DNA of 63,267 nucleotides from Candidatus Dadabacteria bacterium (GCA_003696425.1 RFHI01000055.1:1-63267), one strand, 5' to 3'. Positions 20,543 to 48,680 are shown, counted from the stretch's first letter. Notes: generated by a model not told the origin, from the sequence alone. Translations and numbers: made by a program.

Positions 20543-20551
20543 GCTTAATAA

Positions 20552-20582
20552 AAAACCCCGCATAAAAGCGGGGTTTTTTTAA
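20552..20582. terminator. bidirectional rho-independent terminator
   Basis: AAAAAA-ccccgc-ataaaa-gcgggg-TTTTTTT lies between the convergent kinase-like and pilin-like genes. Confidence 0.85.
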
Positions 20583-20600: not shown

Positions 20601-20987
20601 CTAAGCTTGTAAATGTTGATCATTAAAGAAAGTCGATATAATTGAGCGCAGGATAAATGCGCCAACGGCTACAACAAGCAGCGAAAGCGCAGCTCTGTAC
20701 TGTCCGAAAGCAGAGCTTAAAATTGCACCAATTCCGGCAGCTACCATTACCAGAATACCGAAGCTGCCTTCGATATGGGTAAGAATTATGTTCGCTGACT
20801 CGGCGAGTCTGGTGTCATTATACTTCGCAGTGAGCTGTGCAACAGCACCATCAGCCAGTCCCGCCGCTAAAAGCACAATACCAAGCAGGAAAAGTATAGC
20901 TCGCCCCTGCTTCTCTGAAGGCGCATAAAAACATGCACCGAGATTCTGTCCAACCTTTGTGTATAGATTCTTAATTTTATTTTTCAT
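20601..20987 (-). CDS. pilin-like small membrane protein (TraA/VirB2/TrbC architecture)
   Basis: Start chosen at ATG 20987 (GGAG about 10 nt upstream); the track ORF extends to 21062. It has a leader of about 50 aa ending AVAQ. The mature part is about 78 aa: a hydrophilic N-terminus, a TM helix (FGILVMVAAGIGAILSSAF), a short basic loop and a second TM helix (AALSLLVVAVGAFILRSII). Confidence 0.45.
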   Translation of the reverse strand: MKNKIKNLYTKVGQNLGACFYAPSEKQGRAILFLLGIVLLAAGLADGAVAQLTAKYNDTRLAESANIILTHIEGSFGILVMVAAGIGAILSSAFGQYRAALSLLVVAVGAFILRSIISTFFNDQHLQA

Positions 20988-21163
20988 GACCAAAATACTC
21001 CGTATAGTATTTGAATCCACCATTTTTAAAACCGACACTCTGCAAAATTGCAGGCGTCCCACTTCTACTAATTGTTATGCCACCCAAAGTCGCAGTGGTG
21101 ACATAAAAAGTCAGGTTTTTTAAGCACAGAAAAAATATTTTTACTGTAATTATAGTGTGTTAT

Positions 21164-21697
21164 CTAGCCACGTGCACGGGCCGAGAGTCCCGGAAGGTAG
21201 CGCTCGGGGTTTTGGGGTTTTCCGTTTTTACGGATTTCAAAGTGAAGATGAGGGCCAGTTACACGCCCACTTGTTCCCACAGTCCCAATGATCCTGCCAG
21301 CCTTAACAATCTCGCCGGGCTTAACCTTTATACTCTCAAGATGGCCGTAATGACTTGTAATACCATTATTGTGCTGAATCACAACAAGCCTGCCGTAGCC
21401 ACCAAAGGGGTCGGCAAAGACAACAGTTCCAGCAGCTACTGCCCTTACGGCTGCTCCACTCGGCGCTGCCAGATCTACACCGCTATGATGTCTGATAACT
21501 CGTTTAATAGGATCTTTTCGTTTACCGAAAGAGCTGGAAAGACGCGGACCAAGTAACGGATAGACAAAAGCTGGGGCAGCAAAAACAGACGATGCCGCAC
21601 TGCGAACATTCCCACCTGGTAACGCCAGCGCCGATAAAAGACTAACGACTAACAGAGGCGCTAATACGCCTGAAACTTTCACTCTCAAGATTTGCAT
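21164..21697 (-). CDS. M23 (LytM-type) peptidoglycan metalloendopeptidase, secreted
   Basis: HSGVDLAAP...HYGHL...GRVTGPHLHFEI gives intact HxxxD and HxH motifs. Start placed at ATG 21697 (AAGGGA RBS) with a signal peptide. The gene overlaps the upstream gene end. Confidence 0.8.
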   Translation of the reverse strand: MQILRVKVSGVLAPLLVVSLLSALALPGGNVRSAASSVFAAPAFVYPLLGPRLSSSFGKRKDPIKRVIRHHSGVDLAAPSGAAVRAVAAGTVVFADPFGGYGRLVVIQHNNGITSHYGHLESIKVKPGEIVKAGRIIGTVGTSGRVTGPHLHFEIRKNGKPQNPERYLPGLSARARG

Positions 21698-22628
21698 TGT
21701 ATCCCTTAATCCTGATAGTTTTATTCGGAGAGGCTTTTCGGTGTGCTCCAAAGCTCACTACACTTGATGAAATCCAGGCTCTTGAACCAGTTGGCGTAAT
21801 TACGCGATACCAGTCCCCGAATCTTTTTTCAACGGCCAATCTGGTCCCTTTCCGGACCGTCATAAGGGGCGAATTGTTAATTCCTGCACCACTTCGAAGA
21901 TTAGCCTTATTAACAACAACCGTCGCTATAGGCATATCTGAGAACACTTCCTCCGAGCTTAAATCTGTCGGCACAGGACTTCCTCCTGCTGCTGCTCCTG
22001 GTGACCTGTGCGGAGCAAAGCGGGCAAGAGCCTTATTATTTCTCTGCTCAACTATGGCAGAGAGTCTTTCAACTTCTGTCTCTGCAAAAATTAAACGGTT
22101 ACGTGCTTCATTGAGTTTGGCCTCCAGATCAGCAAGTTTTTCCTGAGCTTCTCTGGCTTGCATCTCAAATTTCTTACTGTTTTTCTTGTATGCAGCAAGC
22201 TGTCTATCCTTCTCCGCCAGCTTGCTTTTAAGTCCCTTTAAGCGGCTTTTAAGATCAGCAATAAGCTGGCTCTGCAAATTGTTTCTGTTATCAGCAGACT
22301 CTTTTTGTTGAAGCTCTTTAACCCATTCTGGTGCTTGAGTCTCTGTCTTAGTTTGCTGCAGATTATCGGCTTCTGCTGTGCGACTATTTTTGTTTGCTAC
22401 GATAGCAGTTTTCACCTCTTGAGAGACTTTCTCGGGTGGCTTAATAACATCTACGGAACTTTCAAATCCCTGCTGAGAGGAGCCATTCTGTTTTCTCAAA
22501 GTCTCCAGCTCCTGCCTTAAAGCATCAATATCAATAGCTTCCTGGGAAAGAGCAACTGAAAATGGACTTACAGCTGATAAAGCTATTATCAGGAGAAATA
22601 AACAATTTTTTACTCTAAGCATATCCAA
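21642..22628 (-). CDS. secreted coiled-coil protein with C-terminal SH3b-like domain
   Basis: 328 aa: signal peptide, long Gln/Lys/Glu-rich coiled coil, then NKANLRSGAGINNSPLMTVRKGTRLAVEKRFGDWYRVITPTGSRAWISSSVV (bacterial SH3 pattern). Confidence 0.6.
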   Translation of the reverse strand: MDMLRVKNCLFLLIIALSAVSPFSVALSQEAIDIDALRQELETLRKQNGSSQQGFESSVDVIKPPEKVSQEVKTAIVANKNSRTAEADNLQQTKTETQAPEWVKELQQKESADNRNNLQSQLIADLKSRLKGLKSKLAEKDRQLAAYKKNSKKFEMQAREAQEKLADLEAKLNEARNRLIFAETEVERLSAIVEQRNNKALARFAPHRSPGAAAGGSPVPTDLSSEEVFSDMPIATVVVNKANLRSGAGINNSPLMTVRKGTRLAVEKRFGDWYRVITPTGSRAWISSSVVSFGAHRKASPNKTIRIKGYNANLESESFRRISASVSR

Positions 22629-22658
22629 CCTCGTTATAAAAACCTGTTAAACCTACTA

Positions 22659-23195
22659 TCAGGCCGTGGCACGCTCAACCACAGTCCGGCTGGCCTGACG
22701 GGCAAGTTTCTGCCGCCTGTCACGCTCTGACTGAATCATATCCTGCACCTCTTGAGGTGCTGCAACGCCTGAAAAAATTATCTCTATGCTTCCTGTGGCA
22801 GCTGTGCCTATTTCTACTGTACCAATATCAAGAATCCTTTCACTAATTGTCTGTTCTTTTTCTACAATCCTGATATCTTCATAACGCACACGCACCACCC
22901 GCTGCCGTAAAGAGAGTATTCCCACCCTAAGTTCAACCCCTCTACTGTCAACAATATACTTTACATTATAAATCTGGTAGATAGCCTTGCCGATAGGGAA
23001 AAGTGGGAGAAACCAGAAAAGTGGTAGGTTCAAATAAAAAGCAGAATTGCCAATTGTAAAAAGATGCCCCGATATTACACTCCAGGGATACTGACGCGAC
23101 AGCACAATACTTAAAATGCTGAACACCACAAACATGGCCACATTGGACAACTCTGCCCGCCAGACCCTTGGTATTACTATCGCACCTTTAATCAT
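22659..23195 (-). CDS. membrane protein with bacterial PH (bPH_2/YdbT-like) domain
   Basis: 178 aa with two N-terminal TM helices, then YIVDSRGVELRVGILSLRQRVVRVRYEDIRIVEKEQTISERILDIGTVEI (bPH_2 pattern). Confidence 0.6.
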   Translation of the reverse strand: MIKGAIVIPRVWRAELSNVAMFVVFSILSIVLSRQYPWSVISGHLFTIGNSAFYLNLPLFWFLPLFPIGKAIYQIYNVKYIVDSRGVELRVGILSLRQRVVRVRYEDIRIVEKEQTISERILDIGTVEIGTAATGSIEIIFSGVAAPQEVQDMIQSERDRRQKLARQASRTVVERATA

Positions 23196-23210
23196 AAAAA
23201 AACCTGCCTG

Positions 23211-23618
23211 TTATTGCAGTCCTACCAGCTCTTCTATCTCTTTTAACTTGTTTTCTGCTGACCTGGAGCCAGTATGCGCCCTGGTTGTCTTCGATACATT
23301 ACGCTGCCCACGCGGCCGGCTAAACAAAGAATCCAGATCTTCCACATCTCCGTAATTATTTTTCTTCTTCAGCACAGGCGCTGTCTTACGTGCAGGAACA
23401 CGCCGGCTTTCAGTAACTATCCTCTTCGCAGGAGATGAGTAGTGTACTGAAGGCGTGCTGGTCTGTATGGCCGGCCTCCTTTGATTAAGAGGCACCCTTT
23501 CAATCCCGCCACCTGAAAGACGAAAAACAGCAAAGGCACAGGCCACAAAAAATATAGTGGCTAAATGAACTTTATTGGTTAGTGGAGCTATAAAATTATT
23601 AACACTTATCAGGCTCAT
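23211..23618 (-). CDS. single-pass membrane protein, basic C-terminal tail (positional TrbI-like)
   Basis: 135 aa with one TM helix (LATIFFVACAFAVF). It sits downstream of traC-like, as trbI does in F. There is no sequence motif, so the call is positional only. Confidence 0.35.
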   Translation of the reverse strand: MSLISVNNFIAPLTNKVHLATIFFVACAFAVFRLSGGGIERVPLNQRRPAIQTSTPSVHYSSPAKRIVTESRRVPARKTAPVLKKKNNYGDVEDLDSLFSRPRGQRNVSKTTRAHTGSRSAENKLKEIEELVGLQ

Positions 23619-23632
23619 AATTACCTCAAAAA

Positions 23633-23935
23633 TTATTTACCGGGTTGCTTGTAATAACGCCAGCGTCCCTGCCTAATTTCAACAACTTCCTGGTGAGCAG
23701 GGCGGTAGTAGTGCCCCTCCGGATCGAGTCCCGGTGGAACCGTGACAACATCAACCATCGGCTCCTCCCAGATGTACTGAACCACTCCCGGAACCGGCAA
23801 CTCACCGGATGTTCTCTCCACATAAACTTCTCTCTGCGATGCCGGAGCTGTCTGTGACGCCGATGATGCTGCGCAGCCTGAAATTGCTCCGGCTGATATC
23901 ATAGCCATTGTAACATAGAATAATTTAAGCTTCAT
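23633..23935 (-). CDS. small lipoprotein
   Basis: 100 aa with lipobox AISGC. Immediately downstream of the traC-like gene. Confidence 0.5.
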   Translation of the reverse strand: MKLKLFYVTMAMISAGAISGCAASSASQTAPASQREVYVERTSGELPVPGVVQYIWEEPMVDVVTVPPGLDPEGHYYRPAHQEVVEIRQGRWRYYKQPGK

Positions 23936-23984
23936 AGTTCATTCTCCCATAAATCCTTCAAAATAACCTTATACTGTTTAGTCT

Positions 23985-26723
23985 TTAGCTCCCTACAGCA
24001 TCCTCCATCATGTTAAGAACAATGTTCGAAACGCTCGAAGCTCCATCACCATTACTGGCCATACTCTGACGGGCCATCTGGCGCTCCATTAAAGCTTTAG
24101 CACCATTTGGTGCGATTTCCACTGCGTGCTGTAGCGCCAGGAAAAAGTCTCCATCAACCCGCTGCAGTATGTCTTCAAACAGCTGGTTATCGTCACCGTT
24201 ATTAGTGCTGGCCCAGTAGAACGCCGGCTCCAGAGGAAGACACATAGCTCCCTCGCCAAAATCTGAAGAGAGATAAAACTGGGATTCAACGCCTTTAACA
24301 GTCTTAAGTCGCAAGATAACGTCAGACTGCTGTTCACTCAAATTAAAGGCTTTGGCAGTGTAGTGGAATTTACTGGGATCCTGTCTTAAAAAGATCTTGT
24401 TAGCACAGTTTTGCACAATTGCCTGCCCACCAGTACCAACATAAAAGTCTTCTCCTGACTGGGAGGCCGCAATCACTATACCTTTTCTCTTACGGTAGAG
24501 TCTAAAGGCGGTCTCAATAGTACCAGCAGCAGTTTTACCAATTAAGTCATGTGCTTCATCAAACACCAGAATTTTACGGGCATCAAGCTCCTTGGGATCG
24601 TTCATGACTGTGTCGGCCCAGAGCATTGCCACTTTGAGAAATACCCGCTGCAAGTCCGGATTGCGGCTTAATGCTTTCATATCAAAGACTATGAAACGCT
24701 CTTTAAGCTGCAGCGATCCTGGCCGGTCAAAAAAGCGTGCAAAGGTGCCATCACCATAATAATCACCGATTAACATGGCAACACGCTGACGACGCATAGC
24801 ATTGTCTTCTGATTCGTGTACCTTTTTGGGAGCTCGCAAAACCGAAACAACATCTGAGAGAATAAACTCTCTTCTCATAGGACCGTTACGGTATATGCGA
24901 TGAGCTTCTACCAGTGATTCGGTTACAGCCTGGCGATCAAGACGCTCAAGATGTTTATTGCCGTCAATTGCCATATCAACAATAATATCTGCTGACATAT
25001 CAATCAGGTCTTTATAATCTTCATTCTTTGCGTCTGCCGGAGTTTCTCCAAGACGTGCCAAAAAATTCATTGACGGGGCTTTGGAGGGTGTGGCTTCATA
25101 AATTTTCCCGCCGAAAAGTTTAGCAACTTTTTCAAAACCGCACGGCTGCCCAATCATACCTTTATCGAATACAAAAACTATCGGCTCACGCTCTTTGATT
25201 CTTCCATCAGCCAGTGTGGCGTAATGCCCACGATACATTGTAATAAGAATATAACAGAGCAGATAGCTTTTACCTGCGCCAGACACACCACTAATCAATA
25301 CATTGGGTGCAGTATTGGAATCATAAAAGTCAAAATTAACAAGCTCACGATTCCACAGACTGGGCAGTACAAAAAGAGGCCCTTTGCTTCCTTTCCAGTT
25401 ACCCCAGAGCGGAAAGAGCCTTACCGCACGCGATGAACGCATCATAGTAGTCCAACCGGGACCATCAGTGCTAGGATCATAACAACCGGGCAGGGTACTT
25501 ACCATTACGCCCAAATCGGCAATCTCGTGAATCATACCGCGTGCGCCGTTCATATGCGGGAAAGTGGCTAACGCCTCTGAGCTAGCCCGCATAGCCTCAT
25601 CCTCAGTCTGGCAAATAAATGTCTGATGAACTCCTACCCGCACAATTTGTGATGTATTGCTGTAAAGTTCCTGACGAGCAGCGCGAATTGCGGCAATCTG
25701 ATGCTGCACTTTCTGATTAGCGCGCCCACGCCCGCCAAATTCCTGGAAACCAAGGCTTTTATCGAGTTTATCAAGGCGGCTTAACTGTGCTTCACGCGGA
25801 TCCTTGGAAAAAGTAACGCTAACTATATTTTCATAGGGCGATGATAACAGTGGCGAAATCATGAGTGGAACACACGCCTTGGGTGGTTTAACCATTGAAA
25901 CAGTTCTGTATACCCGCCCATCCTTTTTAATTATACCGTTTCTTGGATGCTCAACAGCAGTTTCTGAAACCTGGTTTGCAAGAAAATCGTGAGGATCAAA
26001 AACTGGCACTGGCACTGCTGTATTGCGCCCACGTTTAAACTTACCGGACTTTACGCTGCGGCGATTAAGCAACGGATAAAGAAGATTTATAAGTCTTTGT
26101 CCGTCAATTCTCTGTGGACGAAAACCAAGATCAGCAAGTTTTTGAACATTTCCATCAATAATACCGCGAAACTCATTGGCATAAAGCTGATATTCTTTTT
26201 TCCGCTGCTCAGCACTCACCCCAACCTTACCTTTTACAAGCATCGTCAGGGTCTGGCTTATCTGCTGCATGGCACTCTGGGCCTTCCAGGGCGGGTCATA
26301 TCTAAAGCCACACACAAGTCTTAACTTTCGTGGCCTACGATGAATGTAATGACTGGTAGCAGATTTCCTGAGCATTCTAACCCAGCGACGAGCCATCCAG
26401 CCAGCAGGGCCGTTAGTAGGATATCGATCGATACAGGCCTTTAACAGATCATCGACATCAAAAGTCGTAATCCAGCAAAACTGGGCGCTGATCGTATGCT
26501 CAAATGAATCGAGCATCTCCTGTACATGCGCGCACATACGGTAAGCATCCGAATCAGATGTCTTTGTTATCCACTGCGGTTGAAGCTCCCACAGCGACCA
26601 GAGTGATGCGTCTGAATGAACAAAAATCTGTTGCTCCTCATCATACTTGGCGTACGGCAGGAGCTTGTTAAAGACAGTCTCATCCTGATAAAGTCGTTCT
26701 CTGGTTATTCTACTTATGCTCAT
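23985..26723 (-). CDS. traC: type IV secretion ATPase, VirB4/TraC family
   Basis: 912 aa. Walker A is VLISGVSGAGKSYLL and Walker B is KILVFDEAHDLIG. Size and N-terminal domain are typical of F/G-type TraC. It follows the TraV-like lipoprotein gene. Confidence 0.85.
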   Translation of the reverse strand: MSISRITRERLYQDETVFNKLLPYAKYDEEQQIFVHSDASLWSLWELQPQWITKTSDSDAYRMCAHVQEMLDSFEHTISAQFCWITTFDVDDLLKACIDRYPTNGPAGWMARRWVRMLRKSATSHYIHRRPRKLRLVCGFRYDPPWKAQSAMQQISQTLTMLVKGKVGVSAEQRKKEYQLYANEFRGIIDGNVQKLADLGFRPQRIDGQRLINLLYPLLNRRSVKSGKFKRGRNTAVPVPVFDPHDFLANQVSETAVEHPRNGIIKKDGRVYRTVSMVKPPKACVPLMISPLLSSPYENIVSVTFSKDPREAQLSRLDKLDKSLGFQEFGGRGRANQKVQHQIAAIRAARQELYSNTSQIVRVGVHQTFICQTEDEAMRASSEALATFPHMNGARGMIHEIADLGVMVSTLPGCYDPSTDGPGWTTMMRSSRAVRLFPLWGNWKGSKGPLFVLPSLWNRELVNFDFYDSNTAPNVLISGVSGAGKSYLLCYILITMYRGHYATLADGRIKEREPIVFVFDKGMIGQPCGFEKVAKLFGGKIYEATPSKAPSMNFLARLGETPADAKNEDYKDLIDMSADIIVDMAIDGNKHLERLDRQAVTESLVEAHRIYRNGPMRREFILSDVVSVLRAPKKVHESEDNAMRRQRVAMLIGDYYGDGTFARFFDRPGSLQLKERFIVFDMKALSRNPDLQRVFLKVAMLWADTVMNDPKELDARKILVFDEAHDLIGKTAAGTIETAFRLYRKRKGIVIAASQSGEDFYVGTGGQAIVQNCANKIFLRQDPSKFHYTAKAFNLSEQQSDVILRLKTVKGVESQFYLSSDFGEGAMCLPLEPAFYWASTNNGDDNQLFEDILQRVDGDFFLALQHAVEIAPNGAKALMERQMARQSMASNGDGASSVSNIVLNMMEDAVGS

Positions 26724-27213
26724 CTCTGACAGCCTCTTTTGAAAAATATTCCGGTTTGACAGCCTTGTTTTTTAAAACCCGTATCTCTTTATTCTTATGG
26801 TCAATTACCAAATGTACATTCGCCTTTTTAGCCAGGGCTGCTCCAAGTTCATCCAAAGTTCCCAGCGTATTGATGGTAATCCTCTGATTTGCTATTGTCC
26901 CGGCTACATAGCTCCTGTAACGCATTGCTCTGGCAAGCGAATTAGCAGCCTGTTCCAGGGTAGCGTTATTTAATTTAAGCTGCATTATCGGGTCAATTTT
27001 GGGTGCACTGGTATAGACAACCCTGGCTGGGGCCGGATCGGGAAGATGTGCCCAACGCAATCTGTTATATACCGGCTCGGGCGGCAGCTGACTACTGGCA
27101 ACTCTAAACACTTTTCTTTTCTTAGGCTCCTGATACTTTTTGCCTATTGTTGTGCTACAACCGAAAACCAGCATCAATGTTCCCAATAATAATATAAATC
27201 TGGCTTGTTTCAT
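26710..27213 (-). CDS. lipoprotein with secretin-N0/TcpQ/DotD/PilL-like domain
   Basis: 167 aa with lipobox LVFGC. LKLNNATLEQAANSLARAMRYRSYVAGTIANQRITINTLGTLDELGAALAKKANVHLVIDHKNKEIRV follows the N0/STN-type pattern. It overlaps the traC start by 14 nt. Confidence 0.45.
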   Translation of the reverse strand: MKQARFILLLGTLMLVFGCSTTIGKKYQEPKKRKVFRVASSQLPPEPVYNRLRWAHLPDPAPARVVYTSAPKIDPIMQLKLNNATLEQAANSLARAMRYRSYVAGTIANQRITINTLGTLDELGAALAKKANVHLVIDHKNKEIRVLKNKAVKPEYFSKEAVRDEHK

Positions 27214-27229
27214 TCTTACTCAAATCTCC

Positions 27230-27682
27230 TTACGGTGACTCATTAGAGTTAACATATGGCACATTGGACGCTTTTGACTCGCCGTTTCCAAGCTGACTTT
27301 CAAGCTCAAAGGCATCCTGTACTGCCCAGCGTTCTTTAAGAACTTTAAGGTAGTAATAATGAGCTGGAACCAGATCACCATGACTATTTAAATGATCAGG
27401 AATCCACATTATTCTTACTACAGCAGGTTGCATTACCGGCTTGACTGGCTGTGGTGTATGCGCCCGTTGGTATGAAGCCATCTGTTCAAGTGCCTGTCGA
27501 GCAGTGTCAAACGGTCCGCTTCCACCAAGAGCATGGTCATTGGGCTCACCCTTAAAGGCCACTGGGCTGGGAGGTTCACTAAAGGGATTAAGAACGTTAC
27601 CAACTGAAGCACAGGCGTTTAACAAGAGTAATATAGTCAGCAACGTTGTGAATTTAGTCAATTTAACAGTTTTCATGATCAA
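27230..27682 (-). CDS. T4SS outer-membrane lipoprotein, TraV-like
   Basis: 150 aa with lipobox LLNAC. It lies between the TraB-like and TraC-like genes, as traV (or the TIGR03751 lipoprotein) does. Confidence 0.5.
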   Translation of the reverse strand: MIMKTVKLTKFTTLLTILLLLNACASVGNVLNPFSEPPSPVAFKGEPNDHALGGSGPFDTARQALEQMASYQRAHTPQPVKPVMQPAVVRIMWIPDHLNSHGDLVPAHYYYLKVLKERWAVQDAFELESQLGNGESKASNVPYVNSNESP

Positions 27683-27707
27683 CCTCTTAAAAAACGCTAT
27701 AAGTCAC

Positions 27708-28940: not shown

Positions 28941-28947
28941 CTTTGAT

Positions 28948-29754
28948 CTACCTTGTTTTTCTAGGTCTGGTTATTACATAAACTTTTGCCGTGTCTTTAC
29001 CAGATATCTGTTGCTCGATTGTTAAGGGTCGGGCAGCAATCTCCCAGCGGTTAGCACTTATTGCCCGCGTACCGTCCAGCCGGAATGTAGCCGGATTAAG
29101 CAGCTGAGTCTGATCTAAAAGATTTTGAGCATCCAATACATAGCCCCATAAATTTGGTCCGATAAAAATCTTGTCTATAGTGGTAAGCAACGTGCCATCG
29201 TTCAAAACCACTGTTCCTTTGTATTTATCTGTCATCTGATAACCACGGATTGAATCCTTACCGAATTCAGCAACCAGTACCATCTCACGCATTAATCCAC
29301 TGACCTGACTTGGAGGCGCATATTCATATTGCCGTTCTTTGTGTCGTGGCAAGTCTTCTTCTTCCGATGAAAGGATCAGTCCACGGCGGCTGTCAGTTAC
29401 ATTGACAACATCGTCACGAGGCTTTTCATCAGTGGCACGCTTAATGCGAATGGGGTAGGATCTCCCATCCTCTAACCGAACAATCGCAGCTTCACCTGCT
29501 GTTGTAAGGCTTTCATTTGCGAAAATGATCAGATCGGCATCTTTACGATCCAGCATTACCGCTGAAACTTTCTTCTTGAAACCGCCCGAGATTTTGCCCG
29601 GAAAATGAACCTGGGTCGGTTCCCCGGGGGCTACCCGTATTTCAATCTCTTTATTCTCAAACTCTACTTCACGAGCCATTGCAGCGCTGCTATTTATGAG
29701 TAGCAGTCCTAACATTAATAAAAGCATCTTTCCTGCTAAACAGTCTCTCTTCAT
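28948..29754 (-). CDS. traK: T4SS periplasmic/outer-membrane core protein, TraK/VirB9-like
   Basis: 268 aa with a signal peptide and beta-rich sequence. It lies between the TraE-like and TraB-like genes. Confidence 0.55.
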   Translation of the reverse strand: MKRDCLAGKMLLLMLGLLLINSSAAMAREVEFENKEIEIRVAPGEPTQVHFPGKISGGFKKKVSAVMLDRKDADLIIFANESLTTAGEAAIVRLEDGRSYPIRIKRATDEKPRDDVVNVTDSRRGLILSSEEEDLPRHKERQYEYAPPSQVSGLMREMVLVAEFGKDSIRGYQMTDKYKGTVVLNDGTLLTTIDKIFIGPNLWGYVLDAQNLLDQTQLLNPATFRLDGTRAISANRWEIAARPLTIEQQISGKDTAKVYVITRPRKTR

Positions 29755-29765
29755 TGCTCTACTCC

Positions 29766-30413
29766 CTAATTTAAAACGTTTTCATGCTTTACATCCGTTA
29801 TAACAATCCCGTATGGATTAAGCGGATTACGTGGTACAGTCGTCATAGTTACCGTAAAACGTGACCTTACCGGTGGAAGTTCACGTCCGGCTATTATCTT
29901 TAAACGTTCTCCTGTTACACTGAGTACAGCAGTATCACGTGAAGGCCTTGTTATTTTAGTCTTAAGCGGATCTGCGAAAAATATCTGGGTACGATTTGTT
30001 GTTTCGATTGCCTGAAGTTCGGTTTCCATCATTTCTTTGCGAAACTTGGTAAGCATTGGTTCACGGAGCATTTCAGCTGCTTTGAGAAATTGCCTGCGAG
30101 CCACATTGGACTGATAGCTTGCTATGAGATTAATAAACTCTGTACCGGTATTAATGAACTCAGTATCCGGTATTTCCTGAGCCTGGTACTGCCCCGGCAG
30201 CGGCTTAGCTGGAACATTCAAGATAGTCGTGCGTGTGCCGTAGAGCCACATGCACATTATTAACGTAAAAAATGTTATTGGTACCTGTAGAACTGCAATA
30301 CCGCGCCAGAGCATGGCCTGCTCACGGTAGTTCTCCCAGAGCTTAAAGGTGTCATTCTCACCACGAGAATCGATGATATTGGCATCTTTAAGTATCTTTG
30401 CTGCCTTAGCCAT
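29766..30413 (-). CDS. traE: T4SS inner-membrane protein, TraE/VirB8-like
   Basis: 215 aa with a single TM helix (IAVLQVPITFFTLIMCMWLY) and a periplasmic domain whose spacing resembles F TraE (FINLIASYQSNV...TQIFFADP...VTGERL). Confidence 0.55.
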   Translation of the reverse strand: MAKAAKILKDANIIDSRGENDTFKLWENYREQAMLWRGIAVLQVPITFFTLIMCMWLYGTRTTILNVPAKPLPGQYQAQEIPDTEFINTGTEFINLIASYQSNVARRQFLKAAEMLREPMLTKFRKEMMETELQAIETTNRTQIFFADPLKTKITRPSRDTAVLSVTGERLKIIAGRELPPVRSRFTVTMTTVPRNPLNPYGIVITDVKHENVLN

Positions 30414-30458
30414 CTAAAAAAACCTCCAGAAAATTAAAACCTGTTCGGATGCTCAAAA

Positions 30459-30902
30459 CTACTGCGACTCTTCCTCTTCCTCCATTAAGTAGATGAAATT
30501 GTCGTCATCATCCTCCAAATCTTCTCCGTTGCCTTCAAAAATCTGATCCAACCCGAGTTTCATGTACATACTCTCAGTATCCTGTTCTCTAAGTGGCGCG
30601 CCACTCCAGATCGGCTGAACACAGGCAGGCGCCGGTATGCCCGGAGGACAAGCCCCCATTGCTGCCATAACTGCGTTACAAATGCCGCGCTCCTCATCCG
30701 GAAATTTTGAACGAATTGCTACCATGCCATAAACAACAGCAAGTCCCAGGCCAATAAAAAGGGGCATTGAACGAGCAAGATTCATCTGAAGAACTTCCGG
30801 GGCTAACATGAAAACTGTTATACCCGATATCCAGTCGGAGATTTTTGCTCCAAGCAGGGTATAGCTCTCATTTAAGCAGGGTATTACAGTTCCATTGTCC
30901 AT
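30459..30902 (-). CDS. traL: T4SS membrane protein, TraL/VirB3-like, with poly-acidic C-terminal tail
   Basis: 147 aa. IPCLNESYTLLGAKISDW matches the TraL N-terminal pattern (iPxyLdxpxxxlg). Two TM helices. The tail is GEDLEDDDDNFIYLMEEEEESQ. Confidence 0.5.
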   Translation of the reverse strand: MDNGTVIPCLNESYTLLGAKISDWISGITVFMLAPEVLQMNLARSMPLFIGLGLAVVYGMVAIRSKFPDEERGICNAVMAAMGACPPGIPAPACVQPIWSGAPLREQDTESMYMKLGLDQIFEGNGEDLEDDDDNFIYLMEEEEESQ

Positions 30903-30927
30903 ATTTAAACCCTTTTATTTAATATCA

Positions 30928-31275
30928 TTACTTCTGTCCTCCAGAGAGCCTCGGATCAGGCTCAAAGCGCACACCCTTTTCAGTAATCACCGGCTGCGGA
31001 TCAAGAATCTTCTCCAGATCGTGTGCTCTATCAATTAAAGTTGTACGCCACTCTTTTGTATTTAACAGCGCCTGCGGATCTGCCATTTGCATGCCGCGAT
31101 CAAATTCCCGCACGGCAGCAAGAAGTAAAGATCTGGCTCTGGCATAGTGGCCAACTGCCGCTGCAAGCTCAGCCCCACGAGCGCGCTCAAGAGCTGCCGA
31201 AGTATTCTCCGCAGAGGCTATCTGCGCCCATATCAGCACAAGCCCCAGGCAGACAAGATATCTGAGATTATTCAT
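30928..31275 (-). CDS. small secreted helical protein, first gene of the T4SS operon
   Basis: 115 aa with a signal peptide (LVLIWAQIASA). Positional analogue of the small secreted proteins at the head of G-type tfc operons; no firm motif. Confidence 0.45.
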   Translation of the reverse strand: MNNLRYLVCLGLVLIWAQIASAENTSAALERARGAELAAAVGHYARARSLLLAAVREFDRGMQMADPQALLNTKEWRTTLIDRAHDLEKILDPQPVITEKGVRFEPDPRLSGGQK

Positions 31276-31604
31276 TTTTTTGCTCCCTCAAAGAGATTGA
31301 CACAACTCTGTTTCTGGAGTCAGTTCAATACTGTTATGAGGGTGAAAGTGCTCAATGATACGTAAAGTGATAATTTAATCAGCAGATTTTAATTATTGAG
31401 GGCCAGCCGTAAATTTCAGAAGCAGAATCTTTTAAATTAACGATATTAATTCTAGAGGTCCGAGCGCCCAAAGGGCGCACTGCGCCATAATGGCCTAAAA
31501 TTGCTTAGAAACTTAATAAATATTAAAATTGCTCCAGTTAGTCTAGAGATACTACGCAGTAACAATTTAACTTAACTAATTCAAAAGCAAGGTACTAGTT
31601 CCAG
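31276..31604. promoter_or_regulatory. divergent promoter region of the two T4SS operons; candidate oriT/operator
   Basis: AT-rich 329-bp gap between divergent operons with an isolated GC-rich element at 31464-31486: gcgccc-aaa-gggcgc, overlapping ggcgc-act-gcgcc (mutually exclusive hairpins). tctagag is repeated at about 31451 and 31541. Confidence 0.4.
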
Positions 31605-33665
31605 GTGTCATCGCTCAAACCTGATAAGGTTATAGAAAAGGAAGTAGGAGAGCTAACTTTACCTGCTGTCCGTAGAGGCAAAAGCCTTCTTATTATTGCT
31701 GTAATTTTGCTGTTAACCGTCACAGCATTTTTCATTGTAACCGTAACAGGTAGCCAGTTATCCACAGCCAGAGAATTTAGTATTAAAAAACAACTTGTAA
31801 AGTCAGGCAGCCCCTGGGCTGTGCAGCTGGTTAAAAGCGAGATAGCCTATGAAAAGTGGCTTATGCAGCATGCCTCTGATAGTGAGCTTTATATATTTAA
31901 AGGCGTTGTCGGTTTTGTTTTAAGCTCAGCCCTGAAACGTGAAGTCTCTTCAAAAAAAAGTATATTTGGCAACGCAATTTCCCGAAGCTTTGAAGCTGCG
32001 CTCCTACGTATCTCGTTTTTTATTCTGGCATCCTGGCGGCTCTGGCTGTTGGCGATACTAACTGCAATTTACCTCGGCATCAAATCATGGAAAGTTCATA
32101 AGGGTGACGATCTTTTGGGCCAATCTGGAAATGGCAGATTATTCTATTCCGGTATTAATGCCCGACTTGAAAATCTTACTTCTGAAGGCATTCCAGATAT
32201 TCACCGCGTGGGCCTGGCATGCCCCGAAAAAGAGAGCGAAAGCAGAACCAGAAACTCAGCGATTGGAAAGTTGCTTGACGCTTATGGTGCACTGAATGAT
32301 ACGAACATCACGCTGGCAGCTATTATATTAAAGCACTCTGACTGGGCAGGATTTATAGTTGATGGCGCTACAGAACTGCCAGTAACTGAGTTCAACCTTG
32401 CAGCAACATCTTTGGAAGTTCTCAACAAAGCATTGGCAGTGCATGCTCTCTATCAAAAAACTGGCGCACTACCCTCACAACTTCCCTGGGAAGAACAGCC
32501 AGTTTCAACAAATCAGCAGGAACTCATGCTTATAGCTGAACAACAGCAGCGGGTAACCAGCCTGAAGGAATACGGGCGGCTGCTAGAATATGCTCTTGAT
32601 CGTGTACTTACTCCGGCAATGCGGCAGATAATATCTGAAATACCTGCTGAAGAAATAGCCACACTGGTTCTTGCCCACCAGGCTGGCAAGGTACTCGCCT
32701 ATACTCCGGCAGGTGGCAGCTGGTTTAAAGAATCAAAATTCGAGCAACTCTCAGCACGGGCAGTACTCCACTCTGTAGCTGCTTACGGTCAGGAATACGA
32801 CTACTATACGAGAACGAATTTACGACAGGCATTGATTTACGGATCGCGCAGCACAGTATTTGGGCCGGTTCGACTACCTGTTGATATCAGCGCGCGGGCA
32901 CTTGCCATGCGACAATGGGTAGAGATCCTTATGGCCACGCCGGCCAATCTGGTCCCTACTGCTGATGAGGTAGAGCTCTTTGGCCTGGTTCGGGAAAGTT
33001 TTACTCTGTGGCAGGCCACATTTTTTGATAGGATAGTTGCCGGAGACCAAAAATTCAGTGGAGTTTTTGCGCCCCGAGGTGTAAATCTGGTGTTCTTTAG
33101 TCTTGCCGCAATTATTGAATCACTTGAAAGCTGTTTTGACAAACAGGCTCTGGACCGCCTGATGTATCTTATCGAGCTTGCGGGTAAGCGTCAGGCAGAG
33201 CTTATAAGAAACCTTGAAAAATCCGATGACGAAGCCCTTACTATCCCTATTTATGAACGAATTCCAGTACCAGTCAGTGAAAGTGAAATACAAAAACTTA
33301 GTAAGCACCATCAAATAGACCCTGATTCACTGCGACACTGGTCTGCATTACGTTATATTTTAAGTGCACACGGCTTTTTAGCACGCAGAGTAGGGGACCG
33401 TACCGTGCCGGAAAGCGGTGTAACTTTTGTAGTTTTTGAATCTAATCAAAGCACCACCGAAGCCGGTAAGTCCGAATTAATTGGTCGTGCAGCACAGGTT
33501 GTTTTTAGGGGCAATCCCTTTCAGGAGCATTTCGGCCCGCACTGGCGCGATAAGTTTACCGCAGTAAACTCTGCTGTGATCGCAGAAACTCCCGAAGAGT
33601 ACCAGCGGGTGTTAAACGGCAGAACTGAACCAGGTCAAACAGAAAATGAGGCAGTTAACGGATAA
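31605..33665 (+). CDS. polytopic membrane protein with large cytoplasmic domain, encoded immediately upstream of the coupling protein
   Basis: 686 aa with a GTG start. There are 3-4 TM helices in the first 160 aa or so, then about 520 aa of soluble sequence with no catalytic motif I recognise. It ends 13 nt before the T4CP start. Confidence 0.5.
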   Translation: MSSLKPDKVIEKEVGELTLPAVRRGKSLLIIAVILLLTVTAFFIVTVTGSQLSTAREFSIKKQLVKSGSPWAVQLVKSEIAYEKWLMQHASDSELYIFKGVVGFVLSSALKREVSSKKSIFGNAISRSFEAALLRISFFILASWRLWLLAILTAIYLGIKSWKVHKGDDLLGQSGNGRLFYSGINARLENLTSEGIPDIHRVGLACPEKESESRTRNSAIGKLLDAYGALNDTNITLAAIILKHSDWAGFIVDGATELPVTEFNLAATSLEVLNKALAVHALYQKTGALPSQLPWEEQPVSTNQQELMLIAEQQQRVTSLKEYGRLLEYALDRVLTPAMRQIISEIPAEEIATLVLAHQAGKVLAYTPAGGSWFKESKFEQLSARAVLHSVAAYGQEYDYYTRTNLRQALIYGSRSTVFGPVRLPVDISARALAMRQWVEILMATPANLVPTADEVELFGLVRESFTLWQATFFDRIVAGDQKFSGVFAPRGVNLVFFSLAAIIESLESCFDKQALDRLMYLIELAGKRQAELIRNLEKSDDEALTIPIYERIPVPVSESEIQKLSKHHQIDPDSLRHWSALRYILSAHGFLARRVGDRTVPESGVTFVVFESNQSTTEAGKSELIGRAAQVVFRGNPFQEHFGPHWRDKFTAVNSAVIAETPEEYQRVLNGRTEPGQTENEAVNG

Positions 33666-33678
33666 GATTTAAGAGCAG

Positions 33679-35838
33679 ATGGCCAGAGATTACAAAAATA
33701 TTACAATTGATGAAATACAGCAGCAGGAACGAGCGCGTGCGCTCAAAAATGTTGCGCTTGCCAGCGGGGCCGGTCTGGCACTGGCTGCCAGCCCACTTAT
33801 GAGCTCAGCAGATCCAACTCTTTTTCTGGGGTTAGGCGTTTTGCCGGCTTACGCTCTGGCACAGTATGCCCGGACACTCAGCAGGCAGATCTGGATTGAG
33901 AGAGAACGCCGTAAAGAATCGCGTTTAAGAGGTGGCAGGAAGGTACTGGGCATGCCGCCGCAACGGGATGCTTTTCAAAAGGAGCTTGAAAGGTGCAGGC
34001 AGGAAGGTAAAAAAATCATTGATCGCTACATGGTTGGTTTTTCACTGGAGACAGGTGAACCCCTCTGGATAGATGATAATGATCTCTGCAGCCATGCCTG
34101 CGTGTTTGCCAAGACAGGTGTAGGTAAAACTCTCTGGCTGGAATCATTGATGTTTCAGCAAATGGCCCGCGGCCGTGCCAGCGGCTGTACTTTTATTGAT
34201 GCCAAGCGGGATTCCGGCACACTGGCACAGATCATTTTAATGGCGCTTATAACTGGCCGAATAGAAGATCTTATTGTTGTTGATCCGTTTGACCCGGTAC
34301 ACTCATACAATTTTGTCATGACCAATCAGCGCGCTGATGTAAAAGCCCGTAAAGTGCTAAGAGCCGGACTGCCACCAACATCTGATCAAAGCACTACCAA
34401 GCACTACGACAGGCTGGCGGCTGATTCCATTTACCGGCTGGTACGCGCAATGGAGCGCTTTGGACTATCGTGGTCAATAAAGGATATGGCAGTGGCCCTT
34501 TCAGCTTTCAATTTAGCATATCCGCAGTTAAGGGAGATGCTCAGCAGAATAGGCGCAAGACAGGCAATGGTTGAACTGGGGCATCTGGCAGCAAGCTATA
34601 GAAACCCGAAGGGCACTCTGGATACTACCAGAATAACTGACAACCTGCGGGGAATTGCATCTGAGCTGCATGCGATTTCCGGCAGTGAAATGGGAGGCGT
34701 TTTCTGTACCAGTTATACCGATCTGGTGCTTACAGATGCCATTTTGCGCGGCAAGATAATTTATTTTATGCTGCCGCGTCTTGAAGAAGCCGAGAGTGCT
34801 TCCCGCATGGTTAAGGTCTTTAGAGAAGATCTTGAAGTTGCTATAGGTGAAATCACTTCTTCCCGCGCTTTTAATCTTGAAGATCCCCATCTTGTAATAA
34901 TAGATGAAGGCGCATCAACTTTTGGTCCGACCTGGGCAAATCTATTTGAACTTGCAAGAAAAGGGCGCTTTGCGCTGATTTTTGGAGCGCAATCCACGGG
35001 CGGATTAACCGATCAGTCAATGGGGCTAAGCGAACAGTTCTATGAACGTGTAATGGCCAACGTTAACCTTAAGGTGATTATGAGGGTAGGGGACAACCGT
35101 ACTGCCGAGGATATGGCCGAGTGGATTGGTAAAGTTTCAACTCTTAAAAAATCAGTTGGGGCCGGAGTTACTACCAGTCTCTCTTCTAATGTGCTGCGCG
35201 GAACATTAGATGTTACCGGCAGAAAAACGGGTGGAGAATCACAAACTATAAGTGTACAGGAAAGCGAAGAATACCTGGTAAGTCCTGAAGAATTAAAACA
35301 TGAAATGTCGGCAGAGAAGGGCCTGGCCTGGTTTGATCTCGGTGACGGGCGCATAGTTAAAGGACGTGCCTTCTGGTTTAATGCCGAGCTGCCGGATAGC
35401 TGGGAGGGCAGAGAATTTCTTACAAGACTTGAGCGCTATGAGGTTGACGAAATAGGCCTGGCCGACTGGGTTGATGAACAGATTCTGTATCGTGAGCAGG
35501 ATGAAACTACTGATACCGCTAACGGCACAAAAAACAGCAGCGGGCCAAAAAAGATTGCTGCCACTGAAACTAAAAAACTGCCTGACTTACAGCAAAAAGC
35601 CGAAACAGCAGAGTCTTCTGCGGAAAAAAGCGGTCCATTTAAACTCAGTCCTATTCCGCGTGGAGCTGGAGGAAAACCACGCGGTTCAGTCACAGCTCTT
35701 CCGGCAGGGGGACATCAAAAGGCAAAGCAGCATGATACGGCCAAGTCTGCTCAAAAGGATGCTAACGATGAAGGCGGCAGTGAAAAATCAGCTAAAGAGT
35801 CCAAAAATCCGCCGCGCAGACGGCTTAAGTTCCGCTGA
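33679..35838 (+). CDS. traD: type IV coupling protein, TraD/VirD4 family ATPase
   Basis: 719 aa with two N-terminal TM helices. Walker A is VFAKTGVGKTLW and Walker B is HLVIIDEGAS. Lys/Ala/Glu-rich disordered C-terminal tail. Confidence 0.8.
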   Translation: MARDYKNITIDEIQQQERARALKNVALASGAGLALAASPLMSSADPTLFLGLGVLPAYALAQYARTLSRQIWIERERRKESRLRGGRKVLGMPPQRDAFQKELERCRQEGKKIIDRYMVGFSLETGEPLWIDDNDLCSHACVFAKTGVGKTLWLESLMFQQMARGRASGCTFIDAKRDSGTLAQIILMALITGRIEDLIVVDPFDPVHSYNFVMTNQRADVKARKVLRAGLPPTSDQSTTKHYDRLAADSIYRLVRAMERFGLSWSIKDMAVALSAFNLAYPQLREMLSRIGARQAMVELGHLAASYRNPKGTLDTTRITDNLRGIASELHAISGSEMGGVFCTSYTDLVLTDAILRGKIIYFMLPRLEEAESASRMVKVFREDLEVAIGEITSSRAFNLEDPHLVIIDEGASTFGPTWANLFELARKGRFALIFGAQSTGGLTDQSMGLSEQFYERVMANVNLKVIMRVGDNRTAEDMAEWIGKVSTLKKSVGAGVTTSLSSNVLRGTLDVTGRKTGGESQTISVQESEEYLVSPEELKHEMSAEKGLAWFDLGDGRIVKGRAFWFNAELPDSWEGREFLTRLERYEVDEIGLADWVDEQILYREQDETTDTANGTKNSSGPKKIAATETKKLPDLQQKAETAESSAEKSGPFKLSPIPRGAGGKPRGSVTALPAGGHQKAKQHDTAKSAQKDANDEGGSEKSAKESKNPPRRRLKFR

Positions 35839-36052
35839 AAACCGGGCAAAAAAACAGGCCAGCGCCCAAAAGATCTATTATTGTGCAATTTCAATAGGTT
35901 ATAAACGGGGCGCCACAAATTTTAATTTTGAAAGTATTTTCAAAATATAATAGTATACTTATCCTATACAGGCAGGATACTGCACAGACCGTGGTAAATC
36001 CTATGGCTGGCCGGTACTCCGTACAAACCTGCAATATTTAGGTGAGAAGGTT

Positions 36053-36544
36053 ATGTATGTAGGTGGGATATCGTTTTCCATAAACAAGTCTTTCGGAAGC
36101 TTACAACTTGTTCCGCAAAAAGATGGCTTAAGATTTCATTACGTACCGATTGTAGACGGAATAGAACAGTTTGATAACCCGGGGTTTCTCGATCTGCTGG
36201 TGCCGCTCGATGCGGTTGGCGGAATCTGGGCTACCTGCCGTGCGTTTCTGTATGGAGTAGAGTCGCTTGATGAAAATATAATCATGCAGGGCGATGAATC
36301 AAAGGGGGAGTCAGATACTTTAATAAAACTTTACCGTGATAAACCACGTGGCCAGCATGGGAAACTTACCGGTGAAGAAGTTTGCTGGCTCAGGCTTGTA
36401 ACCGGGCGTTCAGAAGAGGAGCGCCGCAGGATAAAGCTTGGTCCACGCGATCTCCTGTGCCTTGAGCTTGCCTGTAATACTGTAATGGTTTTGGCGGGAG
36501 AGGCCGGTACTCATCAGCCAGAATTATATAAGGCACAGAAGTAA
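36053..36544 (+). CDS. hypothetical protein (163 aa)
   Basis: ORF downstream of the T4CP gene. No motif recognised. Confidence 0.45.
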   Translation: MYVGGISFSINKSFGSLQLVPQKDGLRFHYVPIVDGIEQFDNPGFLDLLVPLDAVGGIWATCRAFLYGVESLDENIIMQGDESKGESDTLIKLYRDKPRGQHGKLTGEEVCWLRLVTGRSEEERRRIKLGPRDLLCLELACNTVMVLAGEAGTHQPELYKAQK

Positions 36545-42639: not shown

Positions 42640-42656
42640 GAGAGCCAGGGCTTAAG

Positions 42657-48663: not shown

Positions 48664-48680
48664 TTAAACAGTATATGATC

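Follow-up and report, generated by a model that had tools for sequence, protein, structure and literature searches.

A reduced F-lineage type IV secretion system, probably chromosomal and vertically inherited, with a predicted Whirly-fold partner in an uncultured Bdellovibrionota clade

The window analysed was a stretch of 63,267 nt (GCA_003696425.1, RFHI01000055.1:1-63267) from a metagenome-assembled genome (MAG), and the subject is a type IV secretion system (T4SS) locus encoded there by two divergent operons between 20601 and 36544. An earlier note, made from the sequence alone, had described 20601-35838 as a highly diverged F/G-type-like T4SS locus, either chromosomally domesticated or representing an undescribed mating-pair formation (Mpf) subtype. 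The open reading frames (ORFs) that it named were all present with the sizes and strands it had assigned, and the Walker motifs it quoted for VirB4 and for the type IV coupling protein (T4CP), as well as the motif IPCLNESYTLLG of "TraL", were read in the translations. The system extended beyond 35838, to the end of a further gene, g163, at 36544. Besides g163, the earlier reader had missed a probable pilin and an M23 peptidase with its SH3/coiled-coil partner. The "novel envelope proteins" that the note had seen in the rest of the operon included recognisable families (M23 peptidase, SH3_3, bPH_2 and pilin).

The minus-strand operon contained 14 tightly packed genes (20601-31275). Between 31275 and 21164 neighbouring genes overlapped by up to 14 nt or lay 7-49 nt apart, in addition to an overlap of the SH3 and M23 genes, and a gap of approximately 100-175 nt separated the M23 gene from the last gene, encoding the pilin. 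The operon ended at a strong bidirectional intrinsic terminator (20550-20579; 12-bp stem, T and A runs on both sides), located between the pilin gene and a convergent kinase-like gene. The divergent plus-strand operon comprised three genes (g686, the T4CP gene and g163; 31605-36544). Both operons diverged from an AT-rich promoter region of 329 bp (31276-31604; 36% G+C), which contained a GC-rich hairpin (GAGCGCCC-AAA-GGGCGC, 31456-31476) for which the intergenic regions of 39 relatives had no conserved counterpart. Across 40 relatives, the promoter region shared neither a k-mer nor an inverted repeat, and no feature resembling an origin of transfer (oriT) was recognised in it; on this ground, an oriT or operator at this position was rejected. 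All ORFs were full length in comparison with their orthologues.

Pfam was scanned with the ORFs filling the coding space of the 63 kb, with 11 short ORFs nested inside larger genes of the T4SS region left out. Profiles of up to 40 orthologues per gene were also aligned with hhalign, all against all, with profiles from annotated F-type plasmids of four genera (Klebsiella, Vibrio, Methylobacter and Novosphingobium); these reference profiles were small (2-4 sequences each), and all off-target cells of the matrix were at or below 26%. The VirB4/TraC ATPase (23985-26723, minus strand; 912 aa; Walker A GVSGAGKS, Walker B ILVFDEAHD; locus tag D6719_02610) matched Pfam TraC_F_IV (E = 3.8e-14) and P-loop_TraG (8e-11), both above the gathering score, matched VirB4 and TrwK in PDB, and reached 100% against F-type TraC with hhalign. 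Its NCBIfam scores were 183 bits with TIGR02746 (F-type TraC), 119 with TIGR00929 (VirB4_CagE) and 61 with TIGR03744, for cut-offs of 520-643. More than 300 clusters of VirB4 homologues were found at 69-77% identity.

The remaining core genes of the channel followed the order expected of an F-type system. The TraB/VirB10 homologue (27708-28940, minus strand), with an N-terminal transmembrane helix, a coiled coil, a Pro-rich linker and a TrbI domain, matched Pfam TrbI above the gathering score (2.2e-9), the F TraB model NF010289 (1e-7) and, with hhalign, F TraB (99.5%). The bitopic TraE protein of the VirB8 class (29766-30413, minus strand) matched TIGR02761 at E = 0.026 in the window copy, and 18 of 20 orthologues matched Pfam TraE (best 1.3e-9); its hhalign value was only 3%. 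Between TraE and TraB lay a TraK/VirB9-like periplasmic protein with a signal peptide (28948-29754, minus strand), matching Pfam TraK_C (3.8e-4) and TIGR02756 (6.6e-3), both below the cut-off, and F TraK in hhalign (44%; controls ≤2%). A TraV-like outer-membrane lipoprotein with an invariant Cys24 (27230-27682, minus strand) matched Pfam TraV below the gathering score (1.3e-3) and F TraV in hhalign (74%, E = 2.9e-5). An envelope-spanning core of VirB10/TraB, VirB9/TraK and VirB7/TraV types was present, and the gene calls of the earlier note were upheld by HMM or profile for VirB4, TraB, TraE, TraV, the T4CP and, weakly, TraK. Its TraL call stood by position and topology only: the 147-aa membrane protein at the TraL/VirB3 position (30459-30902, minus strand) matched no Pfam or NCBIfam model in any of 20 orthologues, nothing in the PDB profile search and none of four F TraL sequences with hhalign (0%).

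The last operon gene ("g153"; 20601-20987, minus strand) was read as a probable VirB2/TraA-type pilin precursor, with a long leader, an AxA|Q cleavage-type site and two hydrophobic helices; the longest ORF reached 21062, and the likely start was the Met codon at 20987. Its Pfam TrbC/VirB2 matches covered nearly the full profile (E = 0.14 in the window, 0.051 and 0.0021 in orthologues, 2.9e-5 at best in 8 members) and were all below the 27.9-bit gathering score. NCBIfam VirB2 models matched 3 members of the family, and hhalign against F TraA gave 79% (E = 1.6e-5; off-target controls ≤26%). Upstream of it, a secreted M23/LytM endopeptidase (21164-21751, minus strand; Pfam Peptidase_M23, 5.7e-37) had an ordinary signal peptide and intact HxxxD (HSGVD) and HxH (HLH) motifs. 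The start of its gene overlapped the end of that of a secreted protein combining a coiled coil with a bacterial SH3 domain at the C-terminus (21642-22628, minus strand; Pfam SH3_3, 2.5e-11), likely a cell-wall-targeting partner of the enzyme. LytM-type domains are found in the VirB1 equivalents of Gram-positive systems (PMC12857230), and an assembly hydrolase was for this reason the simplest reading of the M23 enzyme.

Five further envelope genes completed the minus-strand operon. A 167-aa lipoprotein with an invariant Cys19 (26710-27213, minus strand), present in 80 of 82 loci, possibly has a DotD/N0-like domain, as judged from its top PDB match, which was weak (DotD, E = 0.12), and from Pfam DotD matches in two members of a mixed orthologue set (best E = 0.0026), attributed to this protein by inference. 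Downstream of VirB4 were a 100-aa lipoprotein (23633-23935, minus strand; lipobox ISGC) and a variable 135-aa single-pass protein (23211-23618, minus strand), both lineage-specific and without a family match, followed by a bPH_2 membrane protein (22659-23195, minus strand; Pfam bPH_2, 1.1e-8). The first operon gene (30928-31275, minus strand) encoded a lineage-specific, secreted helical protein of 115 aa without a family match, present in 64 loci. Its homologues in more distant relatives had 260-350 aa (loci L060, L064, L067, L070, L074 and L077), and the window product may have been shortened from a larger periplasmic protein. Sequence-profile searches of PDB gave no significant match for the pilin, TraK, TraV, the 167-aa lipoprotein, TraL or g163; the TraL, TraK, TraV, DotD-like and pilin calls were based on sub-threshold or profile-profile evidence.

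In the divergent operon, the VirD4/TraD-type coupling ATPase (33679-35838, plus strand; 719 aa; Walker A AKTGVGKT, Walker B LVIIDEGAS) combined a P-loop NTPase with a TraG-D_C/TrwB-type domain and an N-terminal membrane anchor, the features of a coupling protein, and ended in a basic low-complexity tail. It matched Pfam TraG-D_C above the gathering score (1.2e-7), narrowly missed the cut-off of TrwB_AAD_bind (20.3 vs. 20.5 bits), and scored 59 bits with TIGR03743 (cut-off 366). Its best solved relative in PDB was DotL (3e-12). Median identity of the T4CP across relatives was 69%. An exhaustive HMMER search gave a graded series of relatives from 64% down to 25% identity, by which the T4CP subfamily is broader than the clade. 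A homologue with 59% identity over 84% of the length was a lone gene on the linear plasmid pLBX of Leptolyngbya boryana (L083, 14863-16932), where it adjoined a protelomerase and ParA/ParB and no other T4SS gene occurred within 15 kb. Transfer between phyla, or a role of the T4CP subfamily that does not depend on a T4SS, is suggested by this setting.

The gene preceding that of the T4CP by a 13-nt gap, g686 (31605-33665, plus strand), encoded a lineage-specific membrane protein of 686 aa, with two to three N-terminal transmembrane helices and a mostly helical domain of approximately 500 aa (AlphaFold2 model, predicted local distance difference test (pLDDT) 80.5). It had no Pfam, NCBIfam or PADLOC match and no fold match in PDB (best E = 0.35), and none of its 83 homologue clusters carried a domain. 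Its slot is one in which conjugative elements often carry a relaxase. A relaxase of the MOBH/HD type was rejected: the window sequence LAHQAGK resembles HDxGK, but the consensus was LALEAGK. No invariant Tyr/His-triad or HD set was present, and the confident model was without a PDB match. An extended VirB6/TraG was not supported, with only two to three transmembrane helices and no family match.

The third gene, g163 (36053-36544, plus strand), encoded a cytoplasmic protein of 163 aa that was the most conserved of the system: among 612 homologue clusters, the 120 listed were 67-78% identical, none with a Pfam domain. Its AlphaFold2 model, built with homologues taken from the database (pLDDT 89), is predicted to have a Whirly/PUR fold of two beta-beta-beta-beta-alpha repeats. 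The best Foldseek matches of the model were to the plant Whirly proteins PBF-2 (E = 3.3e-4, probability 1.0) and WHY1, WHY2 and StWhy2 (probability 1.0, template modelling (TM) score 0.56-0.60), and also to PUR-alpha (TM score 0.35-0.40) and MRP1/MRP2, with TM scores of 0.52-0.60 for Whirly and MRP proteins and probabilities of 0.98-1.0; SsgB-type cell-division proteins matched more weakly. Whirly, PUR-alpha and MRP proteins are binders of single-stranded DNA or RNA, the trypanosome MRP1/MRP2 of guide RNA, and SsgB-like proteins share the Whirly fold without binding DNA. The same two repeats occur in Whirly, PUR-alpha and MRP proteins; g163 differed from them in being bacterial and T4CP-linked, with nucleic-acid binding as a prediction from the model.

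Across the ORFs scanned in the 63 kb, none matched a relaxase, an integrase, a partition protein, VirB11, VirB6/TraG, TraF, TraH, TraN, TraU, TraW or TrbC in Pfam, in agreement with the absences listed in the earlier note; the F-specific assembly and stabilisation genes also had no NCBIfam match, the window had neither att sites nor plasmid replication genes, and the hhalign matrix was negative for F-type TraW, TraU, TraF, TrbC and TrbI. No relaxase was found beside the T4CP operon in the other genomes examined. VirB6-type inner-membrane subunits have four to six transmembrane helices (PMC12857230); the locus encoded no such polytopic protein, with at most approximately three predicted helices per protein and no TraG_N or VirB6 match. 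It is possible that a relaxase, VirB6 or effectors are encoded outside the window.

Relatives were sought by scanning one genome per GTDB species. VirB4 was encoded in 114 species-level genomes at 60-77% identity; the best 80 of these 114 loci were retrieved, and no cultured genome was among the 80. For synteny, the window proteins were compared by tblastn with the 80 loci and two from other look-ups (82 in total). The source MAG is labelled "Candidatus Dadabacteria bacterium" at NCBI, which looks like a misassignment. The relatives with the T4SS locus were nearly all labelled Bdellovibrionota, Bdellovibrionales, Oligoflexia or with older deltaproteobacterial names, and because relatives so labelled had the T4SS locus in common with the window, together with the housekeeping genes beside it, the organism was treated as a member of an uncultured Bdellovibrionota clade.

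Gene order was common to at least 80 species-level MAGs: the 115-aa gene, the TraL-position gene, TraE, TraK, TraB, TraV, the 167-aa lipoprotein, VirB4 and the 100-aa lipoprotein, then the 135-aa and bPH genes where present, SH3, M23 and pilin. The nine genes from the first to the lipoprotein after VirB4 were all found in 60 of the 82 loci, the rest being cut by contig ends. Among the 56 loci with enough sequence downstream of VirB4, the 100-aa lipoprotein was present in all 56, SH3 in 52, M23 in 47, the pilin in 35, bPH in 33 and the 135-aa gene in 22. In 34 of 43 informative loci, the g686-T4CP operon lay next to the Mpf operon and diverged from it. On one 348-kb contig (ERZ22682847), the coupling trio (g686, T4CP and a 162-aa gene) lay approximately 30-50 kb from the Mpf operon, with core genes around it. 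Where the T4CP had moved, g163 stayed beside the Mpf operon (L025 and L054), and no arrangement seen separated it from both the T4SS and the T4CP; the genes downstream of g163 in other genomes were variable housekeeping genes. Pairwise identities of VirB4 and T4CP co-diverged (r = 0.90). The T4CP was linked to the T4SS on the basis of this co-divergence, the adjacency in 34 of 43 loci and the constant position of g163 beside one or the other.

The flanks of the locus were housekeeping genes over 20 kb and 27 kb (among them ribBA, ispG, pabAB, a nitrilase-type hydrolase, menaquinone (futalosine) genes, ubiE and an aminoacyl-tRNA synthetase), and ispG and the kinase-like gene were recurrent neighbours in relatives. 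The G+C content of the locus was 0.44-0.48, the same as that of its flanks, with no compositional step. Pairwise identities of VirB4 and IspG were correlated (r = 0.92, Mantel p = 0.001, n = 16 genomes), and VirB4 was the more conserved of the two (mean identity 0.83 vs. 0.76). Synteny, co-divergence and conservation together indicate vertical inheritance under strong purifying selection, and not a mobile element or a decaying remnant; that the locus is chromosomal, vertically inherited and functional was held with high confidence. Housekeeping flanks, the lack of a compositional step, synteny in at least 80 genomes, co-divergence with IspG and the split operons all bore out the chromosomal domestication that the earlier note had proposed.

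Distance from known systems was large, as the earlier note had said of its proteins. Against 72,556 plasmids, the best VirB4 matches had 22-28% identity and included F-type TraC and PFL_4706-type ATPases, and all NCBIfam T4SS models scored far below their cut-offs. VirB4 and the T4CP were matched by T4SS HMMs, and no close family of integrative and conjugative elements (ICEs) or plasmids was found; the observations that the earlier note had named as refuting it did not arise. The undescribed Mpf subtype of the earlier note was consistent with these values (VirB4 at most 28% identical to any plasmid, T4SS models below cut-off); domestication and an undescribed subtype were both supported, and are not mutually exclusive. 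Of the two lineages the note had named, F was retained and G was not. TIGR02746 was the best-scoring T4SS model for VirB4 (183 bits, cut-off 567); within the MPF-G set TIGR03744-TIGR03752, only TIGR03744 (61 vs. 520.6 bits) and TIGR03752 (28 vs. 241 bits) matched. By the sequence comparisons, the system is closer to F than to G, since TIGR02746 outscored TIGR03744 (183 vs. 61 bits) and the pilin matched F TraA profiles.

The order TraL-TraE-TraK-TraB-TraV-TraC was that of the reference F plasmids, TraL by position only. The T4CP was approximately 30% identical to a group of Pseudomonas plasmid T4CPs, tied as best T4SS-linked match (MPF_F). One of these plasmids, pSTY of Pseudomonas sp. VLB120 (L092; MPF_F/MOBF), had a T4CP operon divergent from ompA-traL-E-K-B-V-A-C, and this shared layout indicates which F sub-lineage may have given rise to the Bdellovibrionota system. 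Descent from the F lineage was concluded from the (L)-E-K-B-V-C order, TIGR02746 as best VirB4 model, the TraA-like pilin and the pSTY layout. The neighbours of plasmid T4CPs (pSTY, Vibrio DUF4400, Allochromatium and Myxococcus) were tried as relatives of g686 and g163 and rejected (hhalign approximately 1% or less).

Because VirB4, TraB, TraE, TraV, TraK, the pilin and the T4CP all had HMM or profile matches, identity of the locus as a T4SS was regarded as practically certain. The explanation preferred for the whole, on balance and with modest confidence, was a reduced F-lineage T4SS that is a vertically inherited chromosomal trait exapted for a host function, with nucleic acid as the favoured cargo; the cargo taken by itself was a tentative choice. 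In this explanation the Mpf operon would form an envelope-spanning channel from TraB/VirB10, TraK/VirB9, the TraV/VirB7-like lipoprotein, TraE/VirB8, the VirB3-position protein, VirB4 and the two extra lipoproteins, with an outer complex of VirB7/9/10 type and an inner one of VirB3/4/8 type, and the 14-gene operon probably also makes a VirB2/TraA-type pilus. The secreted M23 enzyme and its SH3 partner would open the peptidoglycan in the role of VirB1. The T4CP, its membrane partner g686 and the predicted Whirly-fold protein g163 would come from the divergent operon. By homology, the T4CP would recruit and energise the substrate; g163 may bind single-stranded nucleic acid, or be part of a nucleoprotein cargo, and would hand nucleic acid to the T4CP or receive it from it. 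Nucleic acid would then move between the cell and a contacted cell, by export or import, with no cis-encoded relaxase. T4CPs belong to the FtsK/HerA-type translocase superfamily (PMC12857230), and nucleic acid or nucleoprotein was favoured over protein effectors because of this membership and because the only conserved cytoplasmic partner has the predicted fold of single-stranded nucleic-acid binders. The more far-reaching proposition, that the entire uncultured Bdellovibrionota clade shares a core machine which translocates nucleic acid independently of a relaxase, through a minimal F-derived channel served by the T4CP, the Whirly protein and the membrane partner g686, was rated as speculative and rather unlikely, and equally so that such a machine would import nucleic acid from contacted cells or inject it into them.

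Several points weighed against this explanation. None of the loci examined had a relaxase, an oriT or another DNA-processing gene linked to the system, and all genomes compared were MAGs. The channel may be incomplete, or completed by a VirB6-like gene elsewhere in the genome. DotL, the best solved relative of the T4CP, transports proteins, and because the pLBX homologue has no T4SS nearby, the T4CP subfamily appears able to work in other contexts. The modelled Whirly fold of g163 is no proof of nucleic-acid binding, as SsgB-type proteins share it, and g163 had no sequence-level similarity to any solved Whirly protein or structure in the PDB search; its role could also be that of a regulator or of an adaptor for the T4CP.

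The main rival, a real if rather doubtful possibility, was an injector that would deliver protein effectors on contact into prey or host cells during predation or epibiosis, with g163 as T4CP adaptor/chaperone or regulator and with effectors encoded elsewhere. Models for such a machine are the bacteria-killing T4SS of Xanthomonadales and Dot/Icm, and the kinship of the T4CP with DotL, the host lineage (Bdellovibrionota, whose cultured members are predators) and the secreted, active-site-intact M23 enzyme with its SH3 partner, which could attack prey walls, would all fit it. Effector translocators, too, are usually marked by a chromosomal T4SS that has a T4CP and no relaxase (PMC12857230, PMC12102498). 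Against this reading, neither effector-like genes nor immunity pairs nor known translocation-signal domains were linked to the locus, where the neighbours were housekeeping genes; the M23 enzyme had an ordinary signal peptide and occupied the position of a VirB1-type assembly hydrolase, and the fold predicted for the only conserved cytoplasmic partner was of a nucleic-acid-binding type. An apparatus that mainly makes an adhesive or retractile VirB2-type pilus, or that takes up DNA in a competence-like way as ComB of Helicobacter pylori does, with no dedicated export substrate, was judged improbable. It would accord with the presence of a pilin and of the core of F pilus assembly (E, K, B, V and C) in the absence of the mating-pair-stabilisation proteins TraN and TraG, and with a linked protein of the single-stranded-DNA-binding type. 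ComB-type systems are without VirD4, whereas here the T4CP was highly conserved and co-diverged with VirB4; the F pilus-assembly factors TraW, TraU, TraF, TraH and TrbC were absent as well, and no ComEC or DprA gene was linked within the window.

The two remaining alternatives detach part or all of the locus from a resident secretion system. That g686, the T4CP and g163 form an independent module, either a DNA-segregation/translocation device or an anti-phage system with a P-loop translocase, a Whirly sensor and a membrane effector, was quite improbable given their adjacency to the Mpf operon in 34 of 43 loci, the co-divergence of T4CP and VirB4 (r = 0.90) and the persistence of g163 alone beside the Mpf operon where the T4CP had moved. 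The trio did have its own operon, located elsewhere in approximately one in five genomes, and the close T4CP homologue on the cyanobacterial linear plasmid stood alone beside a protelomerase. Whirly/sPC4 domains act as sensors in defence systems (PMC12065111), and the T4CP gave a PADLOC mad8 match; mad8 also matched an unrelated helicase of the window, which indicates generic P-loop similarity, and g686 and g163 had no PADLOC match, so that the defence reading of the trio was rejected. Defence systems are, besides, typically patchy and of fast turnover, and not 70-78% conserved. An ordinary ICE or plasmid fragment, with a relaxase and an integrase just outside the window, was very improbable. 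The F-type-like gene order and an IS66 fragment 12 kb away would accord with such a fragment, and the negatives for relaxase and integrase cover the 63-kb window and the loci examined; it is contradicted by housekeeping flanks of 20 kb and 27 kb with no G+C step, by the conserved neighbourhood and the co-divergence with IspG across species, by the separation of the two operons by core genes in one genome, and by a VirB4 that is more conserved than a housekeeping enzyme and has no close plasmid relative.

The reduced F-lineage T4SS shared with the MPF-F systems (pSTY and the Methylobacter, Vibrio and Novosphingobium plasmids) the L-position/E/K/B/V/C order, a TraC-like VirB4, a TraA-like pilin profile, the divergent T4CP operon and the absence of VirB11. 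It differed from them in identity (only 22-30%), in the absence of TraW, TraU, TrbC, TraN, TraF, TraH, TraG/VirB6 and TrbI, in the pilin at the operon end, in an M23 hydrolase instead of a lytic transglycosylase, in the extra lipoproteins and bPH protein, in having no relaxase or oriT, in a g686 and g163 unrelated to plasmid T4CP neighbours, and in being chromosomal and vertically inherited. Within the flank fetched for the four reference F-type loci, three carried TraU, TrbC and TraN, and one TraF, TraH and TraG. ComB of Helicobacter pylori is a reduced chromosomal DNA-uptake T4SS of VirB type (MPF-T), with no relaxase and no VirD4 coupling protein. Compared with ComB (VirB2-B4 and B6-B10), the window had a conserved, T4SS-linked T4CP and an F-type system.

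The gonococcal genetic island (GGI) of Neisseria gonorrhoeae encodes a DNA-secreting F-like T4SS on the chromosome, and its TraD-type coupling protein handles single-stranded DNA for ends other than transfer of the element itself. The GGI was acquired horizontally and has the full F gene set, a MOBH TraI relaxase (treated in PMC6736028) and ParA/ParB, none of which was found in the window. The closest conceptual precedent was the T4SS of Patescibacteria (Candidate Phyla Radiation, CPR), which is chromosomal, usually without a relaxase, equipped with VirB2-like pilins, widespread in an uncultured lineage and phylogenetically distinct, and which derives from the monoderm MPF-FATA class and was interpreted as having been recruited to a function outside conjugation (PMC12102498). 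The window system differed from it in its F lineage and diderm build, with outer-membrane parts of the VirB7/9/10 types, and in having a T4CP and a predicted Whirly-fold partner. No description of this T4SS was found in the literature searched.

T4SSs repurposed from conjugation lie behind major interactions of microbes with their hosts and with one another, for instance in Legionella, Bartonella, Xanthomonas, Helicobacter and Patescibacteria. The present case would add a lineage-wide core-trait T4SS, more conserved than IspG, in a phylum known for predation. It suggests that few F-type parts may suffice (no TraF, TraH, TraN, TraU, TraW or TraG and no obvious VirB6), and it brings three specific new partners, namely an M23 enzyme in the place of VirB1, a membrane protein beside the T4CP and a predicted Whirly-fold protein. 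If nucleic acid were the cargo and no relaxase took part in moving it, the rule by which a relaxase must pilot DNA through a T4SS would be challenged, and a nucleic-acid machine of this kind would represent a T4SS of a new functional class as well as a new form of predator-prey or symbiont-host exchange. If the cargo were protein, the system would point to a weapon or feeding device acting on contact in the uncultured Bdellovibrionota of freshwater and wastewater; MAGs of this group are abundant in Lake Mendota, Erken and wastewater. In mobilome screens, these loci will appear as relaxase-less "MPF-F-like" matches and should not be counted as degraded conjugative elements.

The kinase-like gene convergent with the T4SS operon (18143-20542, plus strand) was syntenic in 20 loci and encoded a membrane-spanning protein of 799 aa whose N-terminal domain is kinase-like (Pfam Pkinase, 5e-9). 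Its catalytic motif HGH replaces HRD, so by sequence it may be a pseudokinase, and it may be a regulator of the system or a mere neighbour. In a comparison with the kinase of a Myxococcus plasmid T4SS cluster (L085), only the catalytic loop aligned, and no specific link was retained. On the other side of the locus, an 898-aa ORF (37661-40357, minus strand) had no Pfam, NCBIfam or PADLOC match, and 40552-44648 (plus strand) encoded a 695-aa DEAD/ResIII helicase and, after it, a 663-aa protein bearing a DNA_pol_A 3'-5' exonuclease domain, which also matched the C-terminus of the BREX helicase BrxHI in PADLOC. The helicase/exonuclease pair and the 898-aa ORF (37661-44648) were rejected as DNA-processing partners, being unconserved beside the system in any relative. 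The window contained no tRNA gene and no Rfam match, and its only trace of a mobile element was a 111-aa fragment of an IS66-family transposase (47793-48128, minus strand; approximately 35 residues matching), within a 1.4-kb stretch devoid of long ORFs (47613-49048). At 5590-5913 (plus strand), a stand-alone ORF of 107 aa matched only the C-terminal domain of the export-gate proteins FlhB/YscU (Bac_export_2, 3.7e-14).

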